Shown here piece after piece: positions 30,274 through 46,781 of a stretch of 64,000 nt of DNA (position 1 is its first letter; each line of letters opens with the position of its first letter). The notes under the pieces are model-generated. The model saw nothing but the letters and a program-made list of their open reading frames with translations. It was not told the origin of the DNA and made no database searches. The position numbers and the translations under genes are program-made. Origin of the DNA: Negaprion brevirostris (taxonomy: Eukaryota); NCBI GenBank assembly GCA_030324005.1, contig JARDVH010000025.1, positions 76,208,729-76,272,728 on the forward strand, read 5' to 3'.

Positions 30274-31017
30274 ATGGGCAGTAAGACTATTCCAGCTCCA
30301 GTGCCTATCCATCCGTCGCTACAATTAGCCAACTATGCATTCCTCCAAGCTTCCAACGGCATCCCCACACCTTCCGAACAGTTGCACAACCTCTACGGCT
30401 TCAGCACCCTCCACACGGTCCATCTGCATCAGTGGACCCTGGGTTATCCTCCGATGCCTTTGCCCCGATCCTCCTTCTCCAAAGTACCCTCTGTTTCCGC
30501 ACTGGTGGACACTCGCTTCCAGCTCCCCACAATCCCCATCTTCCCCCACGTTTTTCAGCCCAAACAAGAGTCCAGCGGCATTCCGAACAAGACGAGGCCC
30601 AGGTTCGACTTCGCCAATTTGGCCATTGCGGCTACCCAGGAGGACCACCNNNNNNNNNNNNNNNNNNNNNNNNNNNNNNNNNNNNNNNNNNNNNNNNNNN
30701 NNNNNNNNNNNNNNNNNNNNNNNNNNNNNNNNNNNNNNNNNNNNNNNNNCTAAGCGCGGACAGATAGACGGACAGTGCTCTCCTTCAGCCATCGGTTCCC
30801 TGCTCGATGCCACCAAGTTATCGCCGGAGAGGAAACCCACAAGGGGAAGGCTGCCGTCCAAAACCAAAAAAGAATTTGTCTGTAAATTCTGCGGGAGGCA
30901 CTTTACCAAATCGTACAATCTCTTAATACACGAACGGACCCACACCGATGAACGCCCCTACACGTGTGACATTTGTCATAAAGCATTTAGGAGGCAAGAT
31001 CATCTCCGTGACCACAG
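30274..31017 (+). CDS. osr1: Protein odd-skipped-related 1, first coding exon (N-terminus plus zinc fingers 1-2); contains a 100-N gap at 30650-30749
   Basis: Translates [25 protein letters not shown]...[18 protein letters not shown] / KRGQ...[59 protein letters not shown], close to vertebrate OSR1. Kozak GCCATGG. Acceptor AG at 30228-29 or 30239-40; donor AG|GTAAGA at 31018. Confidence 0.97.
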
Positions 31018-31334
31018 GTAAGAGGATACTTCTTTACCTCCCAATCTCCTGTACTTACACACTTTGATCCCTTTCATTTCAACTTCGTTGCGTTAATGTT
31101 TGCTCACGACAGGATCTGGCTGCTTACAGTCTCGACTCTAACTGCAGGGAATCTGAATCAAATCCAGGAGAATGACAGTTGGTTCTCATGACTTCCAATG
31201 AGTCGAGACTGATATTTAAATCGTGCAAGAAGTTATTCATGAAAACATTCAGATGAATGGCTTGCCTAGTGAGTTTATGATATTGATTATAATGGTCCAT
31301 AGCAACAGTGGCTAAGAAACTCGGTTGCGTTTGA

Positions 31335-44204: not shown

Positions 44205-44580
44205 TTTGTTATTCGTTTGTGGGACATGGGTGTTGCTGGCTGGCCAGCATTTATTGTCCATTCCTACTTGCCCTTTAGAAGGTGATGGTGAGCTGCCTTC
44301 TTGAATCGCTGCAGTCCATGTTCTGTGGGTTGATCCACAATGCCATTAGAGAGGGTATTCCAGGATTTTGACCCAGAAATTGTGAAGAAATGGCGATATA
44401 TTTCCAAGTCAAGATGATGACTGGTTTGGAGGGGAACTCGCAGGTGGTGGTGTTCCCATGTATTTGTTGCCCTTGTCCTTCTGGATGGAAGTGGTCATGA
44501 GTTTGGAAAGTGCTGTCTAAGGATTTTGGTGAATTGCTGCAGTGCATCTTGTAGATAGTAGACATTGCTGCTCCTGAGTG
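44205..44580 (-). mobile_element. LINE 3' end (CR1/L2 group)
   Basis: Minus strand encodes IYKMHCSNSP and, after frameshifts, GSKSWNTL...LQRFKKAAHHHLL, followed by the tail AATAAATGCTGGCCAGCCAGCAACACCCATGTCCCAC. Confidence 0.75.
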
Positions 44581-45839
44581 TGTACTATCTACGAGGTGCA
44601 CTGCAGCAATTCATCAAAGATGTATCACCATAATTTGTTGCTAGGAAATGCTGGAAAGTTGTGAACCAGGATTTTATCGGCCGCCCGCCCCAGAATTGCG
44701 GCAGACAAGGCTCGCAGAATAATATTCTCTGTTGGCCATGGGTGGAATCTTACAAGCCTCGGACAGGTGAGGTGGTAAAATTCTGGCAGTGGTGTGATTA
44801 CTGAGTACCTCCATAAGATATGTGAAGGGTCATTTATCCCCCCACCCCAGTTACTATTATTATTCCTTAATAGGCTTGATTCTGAAGATGATTGACTTGT
44901 TCATCTAACTGTCTGCTTGACCAGAAGTGTACTGGTCTGAGCATAATACTCATACAAACCACAGTGCCTCATGGCTATTTGTAGAATTATAAATTTTGAA
45001 TAAGATGAACAAGGGAGTTAAATACATCAGTGATTGCAGAGTATGAGCTTGCCTGTTGATGTATGGGAAGGACGTGATGTTGCGGGGTGCAATACTAGAC
45101 AGTAGTTTAAAGGGGCAGGCGTCACAGCTTGGCTAATTGGGAACACAACAACTAGTCAATTAAAAAGAAAGGGCTATATCTATTTACATTTATTCATTTA
45201 TGAAGACAGTGAATACAGCATTCCAGGAACACTTTCGGAATCTGTTTATACATTACCAGATTCAATGATAATTGATTCTATTGGGAAATTTTTCTTCTGC
45301 AGAATGGACTATCAGTGGAAGTTGAGCGGTAGCATTGAAAGGATAGTAATAAATTTGCTCTTGTTTTATCTTGGTTTGAATATGGAAGTTCAATTTTATA
45401 TCAAACTTTACATTAGGTGTGGTTTGTATTAGCGATACATATTTGTATGAGTTCAATATTACTTGCTTGCATAGATATTGTTAACTTTGTACTGTTTTAT
45501 GAATTCTTATATAATAAATGGCAGGTTCTTCAGGACTGCTGATCTTCGTGCTGGAATTCCCAATATGTGGTCTTGATGCCCTGGATATGTAAATTCACTA
45601 ATTAACGCCTATGGAGTATTCTGCAGCAAACTGCTTTACTCTCTGATCAAATTTACGCTCTTACCTAGCAGGAATAATATTGTAACACAGTTCAAAGGTT
45701 TTCCGTTTAAAATAAATTAGTAGCTTTAATACAATTGAAACAATATAAATTAACAGAAATTGTAGCTGTGGCAGTATATTTAAAGAGAAAAGCCAGATTA
45801 ATGTTCACAGTTTTGGCCGTGATATCGAACTGATCTTTT

Positions 45840-46225
45840 AAAATTCAATCAAGTCAAATCCAATTCAGAGTCCCAACAAGTGGGGACATTCTCGATCCAA
45901 GCTGACAAGACTAGGTACTCACCTCCTGTCTCAGGCTTGGTCTACGTGATCCAATCTAATTGGAGTTGGCATAGTCCCTCCTCCAAGGCTTGATCTTATN
46001 NNNNNNNNNNNNNNNNNNNNNNNNNNNNNNNNNNNNNNNNNNNNNNNNNNNNNNNNNNNNNNNNNNNNNNNNNNNNNNNNNNNNNNNNNNNNNNNNNNNT
46101 GCATCTTAGCCCAAAGGCCAATATGCCACTTTCAAAAATTCCTTCAAATGAAGTTAAAATGTAACCTAATGACTTCAACCAAGCGCAGCATGTCAATACT
46201 ACACTTGATCTTAGCCGAGAAGCAT
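45840..46225 (-). mobile_element. U2 snRNA-headed SINE-like element
   Basis: Minus strand starts ATGCTTCTCGGCTAAGATCAAGTGTAGTAT, which is U2 nt about 1-39 with an 8-nt deletion. Further U2-like pieces GGCCTTTGGGCTAAGAT (46103-46119) and TAAGATCAAG (45989-45998). The body is non-U2 with two hairpins. Confidence 0.7.
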
Positions 46226-46781
46226 ATCAATAACAATATTAATCAATATTAGACTGTTATTGCATGATATACATTGATTGCTTACCATGTTTGGGCACTG
46301 ATCTCATTAAAATGGATCTTGTGAGATGGGTGAATTATAGTAGCTCACCACACCAGTGTAAGTGGAGGGGAGAATATTGATAGAGACCCATTCATGTTCT
46401 CTGGCTTCTGCCAATTCTGTTCATATTGAGGTAATTTTCTGATTCAGTTTCCAGTCTATGCCCTGCTGTTATCTTAAATAAAACTATCTTTCTTCCAAAA
46501 GCCAATGATACACATTCAGGCAATGTTCATGGTAAGAGCAGACCTCAAGAAACCCATTCAAGTAACTTGATTTGATTTGATATATTATTATTACATATAT
46601 TAGTATGCAGTAAACATCATTGTTTCTTGTGCACTATNNNNNNNNNNNNNNNNNNNNNNNNNNNNNNNNNNNNNNNNNNNNNNNNNNNNNNNNNNNNNNN
46701 NNNNNNNNNNNNNNNNNNNNNNNNNNNNNNNNNNNNNNNNNNNNNNNNNNNNNNNNNNNNNNNNNNNNNNNNNNNNNNNNN

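Follow-up and report, generated by a model that had tools for sequence, protein, structure and literature searches.

Retroposons headed by small nuclear RNA (snRNA) sequence, the SINEU families, have been described from crocodilians only, according to the available sections of Kojima 2015 (PMC4494074). The same sections tie SINEU to Tx1-Mar LINEs, a group clustering with Keno, and treat SINEU transcription as an open question, since snRNA promoters lie outside the RNA. In the available excerpts of two further papers, the 3′ flank of the LINEs Keno and Utopia is U2 nt 39 onward (PMC4640811; PMC6136364). No shark or ray case of such a family was found in a literature search of titles and abstract starts, which did not extend to the text of genome papers on sharks and rays, to most journals behind subscription, or to Repbase and Dfam, nor was a shark case present in the passages at hand of PMC5381603, PMC5786205, PMC5753468 and PMC7245038.

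The window analysed here, a stretch of 64,000 nucleotides from the shark Negaprion brevirostris to which all positions below refer unless a locus is named, contains a U2-headed retroposon copy at 45842–46225 on the minus strand. This copy is a decayed member of a non-coding retroposon family of about 307 bases put together from U2 and U4 pieces. It belongs to the young subfamily: 254 of its 282 called bases agree with the family consensus (approx. 90% identity to the ~307-base repeat), there is one 8-base deletion in addition, and the AATAAA-poly(A) tail found in most family copies has been lost. A sequence-only reading of the window had proposed a series of minus-strand parts, and this was recovered throughout: a head (46225–46196), a second U2 piece (46126–46103), two hairpin modules (module 1, 45995–45948; module 2, 45942–45895) and an AT-rich end. 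The head had been taken for U2 nt 1–39, and in the young consensus, whose bases 1–3 were taken from the genome's own U2 gene, it is indeed 39/39 identical to that gene (L061); the 8-base gap drawn within it, however, is absent from the consensus, and the window head is U2 nt 1–39 minus 8 bases. The reading had also placed the end of the head near the U2 site of Keno and Utopia. The published flank of these LINEs starts at U2 nt 39, the same point where the head ends, and the consensus head stops at their insertion site.

Behind the head lies a middle segment (46130–46195, minus strand) which descends from the 5′ part of U4 and was remodelled in the young subfamily, and head and middle segment together are predicted to form a 15-pair hairpin (46177–46210, minus strand) from U2 nt 25–39, a 4-base loop and a near-antisense strand. 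The second U2 piece corresponds to nt 4–27 (stem-loop I) and is 23/24 identical to U2 in the consensus. At the other end, the 3′ arm of module 2 opens the homology to U2 nt 39–105, and the 3′ part derived from approximately these nucleotides (45842–45914, minus strand) holds a stem IIb-like hairpin at 45887–45870, followed by decayed T-rich repeats. A 100-N assembly gap (46000–46099) separates two halves that are one base apart in most family loci; the gap is therefore an assembly artefact and, judged from other copies, hides about one base. An Rfam scan of the window yielded no match at gathering level. Its U2 match to the copy was weak (46092–46226, E 0.029), and at 25.4 bits, compared with a gathering score of 46 bits, falls below the level of a functional U2 snRNA gene. 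Across the window and two other family loci, L043 and L214, Rfam returned only sub-threshold U2 and chance matches, with no ribozyme, snoRNA, 5S or tRNA family among them.

Three further observations concern the surroundings of the copy. By eye, 46293–46310 and 45828–45843 (minus strand) share a loose 15-base similarity flanking it, which could be a decayed target-site duplication (TSD) together with a 70-base 5′ extension. Exon sequence of OSR1 (odd-skipped-related 1) lies approximately 15 kb away (30274–31021, plus strand) and is broken by a 100-N gap; its identity is 97–98% with proteins from sharks and rays and 89% with chimaera, which places the host among elasmobranchs. A palindromic stretch at 44528–44615 (plus strand) gave a sub-threshold Rfam mir-17 match (22.9 versus 49.5 bits) and is probably part of a repeat.

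To define the family, the two halves of the window copy were searched against the 2.69-Gb genome and 40 matches were scored per half. The halves drew at least 1,867 and 1,624 first-look candidates, counts that overlap between queries, and the 39 other scored matches per half were 86–94% and 85–88% identical to the window copy. A young consensus of 307 bases, up to the end of AATAAA, was built from 45 of 60 loci, leaving out two duplicates and 13 loci with N. Among 57 young loci, 39 junction matches were obtained: 37 leave U2 at nt 38/39 for the same body; of the other two, one stays in U2 and one enters unrelated sequence. The 5′ start falls within U2 nt 1–20 in 50 of the 57. An older sister family with a U1 head (1,633 candidates) was reached via a diverged sampled copy; its head is U1 nt 5–96 less nt 38–48 (0/1,000 shuffles) and it has the same 3′ 250 bases as the young family. 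Mean identity to the respective consensus was 93.2% for young, 89.5% for intermediate U2-headed and 88.2% for U1-headed copies. The three consensus sequences (307, ~300 and 386 bases) all end in A-rich tails, so that the unit is short (<500 bases), non-coding and poly(A)-tailed. Internal oligo-T runs in the young consensus (T4 at nt 15–18, T4 in the second U2 piece and T6 near nt 97) argue against transcription by Pol III. These features bear out the proposal that the window holds a chimeric non-autonomous element and not a simple U2 pseudogene, and we regard a genuine SINEU-like family as almost certain.

Abundance was estimated from 60 regions spaced regularly along large contigs, with 476,418 called bases in total. 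Three of these contained four family copies, one of them young, corresponding to approximately 18,000 copies including relatives, with a Poisson range of 4,900–46,000. First-look counts for the U2, U1 and U4 models (101,480, 41,350 and 157,836) are rough and do not represent copy numbers. An anchored TSD search gave scores of at least 8 in 5/44 young copies versus 5/1,892 mismatched pairs and in 2/22 old copies versus 0/462; it supersedes a weak unanchored search (10/43 versus 128/1,806). TSDs thus exceed mismatched pairs in a minority of copies, but none is clear in the window copy, and the 3′ flanks of copies showed no base consensus. Public runs from six organism codes in six studies, one of which may be the source, contain at least half of the words sampled from one copy; no RNA run was among them. 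Judging by these shared words, several species probably have the family in common. At some loci the family takes more elaborate forms. Extra U2 5′ pieces precede the head in L043 and L049, while L014, L044 and L041 hold head-to-tail tandem or nested copies, which the 5′ extensions reported for SINEU-2 resemble. L314, L326 and L199:4696–4810 represent another related family, which has a single hairpin module and an extended 3′ part; by eye, this part tracks U2 further, to about nt 130.

The sequence-only reading was right that the sequence leaves U2 nt 1–39 behind the head, but its label of 'non-U2' for what follows does not hold. When compared with the 5′ part of the genome's own U4 gene (L255), the segment behind the head was significant for the old consensus (0/1000 shuffles as good), for locus L125 (0/1000) and for the intermediate consensus (1/1000). 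The middle segment of the young consensus alone was not (823/1000), and that of the window copy is assigned to U4 through the alignments of young to older consensus sequences. For the 3′ part, the match to U2 nt ~39–105 was significant with the old consensus (0/1000) and with the young one (8/1000), and not significant with the intermediate one (386/1000). The two modules, noted earlier as similar hairpins, are duplicates of each other (module 1 versus module 2 of the old consensus, 0/1000), and module 1 compared directly with U2 was not significant (77/1000). These alignments indicate that the body is mostly degenerate U4 and U2, and not foreign DNA.

The predicted structure of the element centres on the U2 branch-point recognition sequence. 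A fold of −113.8 kcal/mol (z −4.2 against 100 shuffles) is predicted for the young consensus, with U2 nt 11–39 paired to the next 30 bases. In the window copy, the U2-sense strand of 46150–46226 is predicted at −25.7 kcal/mol (z −4.29, 0/200 shuffles as stable), versus a z of −0.17 for the opposite strand. We rejected a scaRNA-like reading in which the plus strand would serve as an antisense guide: the head is unfolded on that strand, and the poly(A) tail sits on the U2-sense strand. Across 49 young copies a mean of 14.5 of the 15 stem pairs can form, and the intermediate subfamily has an 11-pair version of the stem with a different loop. The strand opposite U2 departs from a perfect antisense at six positions, all six changes preserving pairing as G-U; changed sites make up 6/9 of the wobble-capable positions versus 0/6 of the others (Fisher p 0.028). 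Of the six changes, two fall at a CpG and four convert A to G, and the G-U-compatible changes could stem from CpG decay or A-to-I RNA editing and not from selection. As modelled, the hairpin would cover the branch-point recognition sequence, and hiding it would be expected to keep the element RNA from interfering with splicing.

Keno is a LINE of the Tx1 clade. For the suggestion that a U2-targeting LINE possibly mobilizes the element, the genome offers a candidate partner: an AP-endonuclease LINE at U2 nt 38/39 that abuts element copies. A pattern of poly(A) followed by U2 nt 39–52 gave 23 matches compared with five for a reversed control. By BLAST, the sequence upstream was an element-family copy in six and the LINE in four; the remainder comprised tails that matched by eye (two element, two LINE), one poly(A)-only insert in a U2 gene, one gap and seven unrelated sequences. 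In L315, L319, L323 and L149 the LINE is joined to U2 nt 39, and the flank starts with the published Keno target. The LINE carries a zf-RVT domain, and its relatives have AP endonuclease and reverse transcriptase (RT) domains and match L1 ORF2p. In L335, a gap separates the LINE at U2 nt 39 from AP-endonuclease sequence on its upstream side, and the PF03372 region of P0005/P0008 aligns to both L335 and L144. A second U2 unit in L335 was rejected as an element and not counted, as LINE pieces take over just ~6 bases after nt 39. The U2 site is the same as that of Utopia, whose specificity is relaxed in crocodilians; however, Utopia has a restriction-like endonuclease (both from the available excerpts of PMC4640811), and the AP endonuclease shows that the shark LINE is not Utopia-type. 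Its likeness to Keno consists of the AP endonuclease, RT-type relatives, zf-RVT and the U2 3′ flank; no named Keno protein appeared among the LINE protein matches or cluster members. The element itself, unlike Keno, encodes nothing.

Element and LINE are also found side by side. Three of 30 loci picked by zf-RVT alone hold an element, in all three within 22 bases and on the same strand, and the LINE adjoins 2/30 intermediate-subfamily loci. No LINE adjacency was seen in 57 young loci, 30 U1-headed loci or the 60 sampled regions (binomial p about 2e-6 for LINE–element adjacency versus the sampled regions). In L282 and L296 the end of the element passes directly into a truncated LINE, which fits the product of a template switch. 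The LINE is mostly dispersed, and most inspected 3′ junctions are not U2. One 5′-truncated LINE interrupts a U4 gene of a three-copy cluster (L268:3773–4367, minus strand), where it is flanked by repeats of U4 nt 41–55. Both the non-U2 junctions and the U4-gene copy indicate that the LINE, unlike Keno, is not strictly U2-specific, and the latter suggests that it hits several snRNA genes. The 5′ end of the LINE was not found, and L124 lacks a full-length LINE. In a U2 array in L149 (C54127), one unit has the LINE at nt 38/39 and the next has, at this position, an insert of poly(A) only, followed by U2 nt 39–58 and then another LINE.

Some element copies lie within U2 genes. In L125, L143/L144 and L282, DNA 78–89% identical to U2 upstream DNA is followed by the head and then the body; L125 is 18 kb from an intact U2 gene, and L282 belongs to a tandem array formed by a second type of U2. 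None of these three promoter-context loci provides an intact source copy. The promoter carries an insertion of ~280 bases or more in L125 and L144; L125 is also cut short by a gap, the LINE interrupts L144 after ~12 body bases, and L282 stops at a contig edge. Searches with U2 upstream DNA yielded only four, eight and two matches. Since two known loci escaped the first of them, the number of promoter-bearing copies is an undercount. Two side observations were made here. L125 (2833–3113) and L143 share an insertion ~90 bases upstream of U2 and have different bodies (intermediate versus young), which suggests separate element insertions or conversion. The U2 genes are of two types with unrelated upstream DNA, one in a 492-base tandem array (L066–L068, C157) and the other with long flanks (L061/L078); L062, L063 and L064, which score highly as U2 genes, have an additional A near nt 30, unrelated flanks and ~81% identity to the main U2, and may be contaminant DNA, with one of them on a large scaffold.

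The six element-family copies assigned by BLAST in the pattern search are dispersed ones whose tail is followed by U2 from nt 39 or 40 onward, and no U2 upstream match lies within 1.5 kb of any of them. The U2 piece is followed by a second A-rich run in five of the six, in three of them at nt 53. This arrangement fits 3′ transduction from putative sources inside U2 genes, although seamless insertion into older A-tailed U2 pseudogenes could produce it as well. Among copies picked by similarity, a U2-like 3′ flank was present in 0/59, 0/30 and 1/30, no more often than in controls, which argues against U2 as a general target.

The explanation we favour is a Keno-like LINE partner combined with source copies under a U2 promoter, and we assign this full mechanism a probability of roughly 0.6. 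The LINE would insert the element at U2 nt 38/39, where the U2 promoter, lying outside the RNA, would drive a transcript from U2 nt 1 through the body. The transcript would be cut near AATAAA, sometimes carrying U2 nt 39 onward, and the LINE reverse transcriptase, relaxed in its choice of target, would scatter promoter-less copies such as that in the window. In the RNA, the strand behind the head is predicted to pair with U2 nt 11–39 and so hide the branch-point sequence. Against this stand the many copies without a U2 target and the lack of an intact source copy, as well as a LINE whose 5′ end was not found and whose place in the Tx1 clade is putative. A U2 promoter also leaves the U1-headed family unexplained, and TSDs are visible in a minority of copies only, not clearly in that of the window.

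An alternative is that a SINEU-like family was read through from unrelated host or transposon promoters, the insertions at U2 nt 38/39 reflecting a residual preference of the LINE. Flanking read-through of this kind is proposed for SINEU-2 in the available sections of Kojima 2015 (PMC4494074), and it would suit a family with most copies outside U2 and only damaged ones in promoter context; that heads can be added by template switching is shown by the additional U2 5′ pieces of L043, L049 and L282. However, the flanks inspected have no evident 5′ extension of non-U2 sequence in common. The clustering of 5′ ends at U2 nt 1–20, and the five dispersed copies with U2 3′ sequence and a second A-run, also speak against such promoters, and we consider this account unlikely, if far from negligible.

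The exact stop of the head at the Keno site, and the AATAAA contained in both element and LINE tails, would also be expected of an internally deleted, non-autonomous Keno made of U2 5′ flank and the two LINE ends, comparable to the short deleted derivatives of other site-specific LINEs. This is improbable: the body aligns to U4 and U2, and BLAST matches of the consensus fall beside LINE pieces and never inside them, a comparison to which the LINE 5′ leader was external. U2 retropseudogenes do occur in the genome (48 scored U2 matches), but independent U2-chimeric retrocopies, or the chance truncated U2 pseudogene beside unrelated DNA that the sequence-only reading had named as its own refutation, are very improbable and already contradicted by a multicopy body with a constant head and junction, one common internal mosaic and three subfamilies of different age. 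Nor, despite its strong predicted structure, is the window locus at all likely to make a functional host RNA, whether a U2 variant or a regulator, as the copy is 10% diverged, has lost its tail and 8 bases of U2 stem-loop I, and is absent from the matches to U2 upstream DNA.

Set beside SINEU-1, known to us by description in the available sections of the SINEU paper, the shark family has much in common: U1- or U2-derived heads swapped on a common 3′ part, stacked U2 pieces, a poly(A) tail, a length below 500 bases, oligo-T runs, occasional TSDs and a link to a LINE, which for SINEU-1 is of Tx1 type and related to Keno. It differs in its elasmobranch host, its U4-derived middle, a 3′ part traceable to U2, a head that ends at the Keno site and a predicted hairpin over the branch-point sequence; some shark copies lie inside U2 genes, whereas those of SINEU-1 lie in Mariner-N4. 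SINEU-3, by the same partial description, likewise has a core resembling a rearranged U2 gene, with a 5′ piece, a middle U2 piece and a tail. The shark family is longer, with duplicated hairpin modules, a U4 segment and an added head, and as far as tested is not confined to one target transposon. On comparison by description, then, what is new relative to crocodilian SINEU is the host, the U4 content and the link to U2 genes. A broader proposal, which we advance tentatively and at somewhat less than an even chance, is that sharks hold a lineage independent of that of crocodilians, derived from U1, U2 and U4, in which a Keno-like LINE drops the element at U2 nt 38/39, the element takes over the promoter and the U4 segment has evolved into an antisense lock on the branch-point sequence.

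The family would extend snRNA-derived SINEs to cartilaginous fishes and add U4 as a source RNA. It would also carry a warning for annotation, in that thousands of 'U2', 'U1' and 'U4' matches in shark genomes are retroposon copies. The common U2 nt 38/39 site, the U2 upstream DNA and the U2 3′ sequence make a candidate route for SINEU transcription visible in DNA, so that promoter capture becomes directly testable. If this is truly a lineage of U2-gene parasites, it would answer how promoter-less snRNA-headed SINEs come to be transcribed, and a borrowed U2 promoter would explain how such elements spread.
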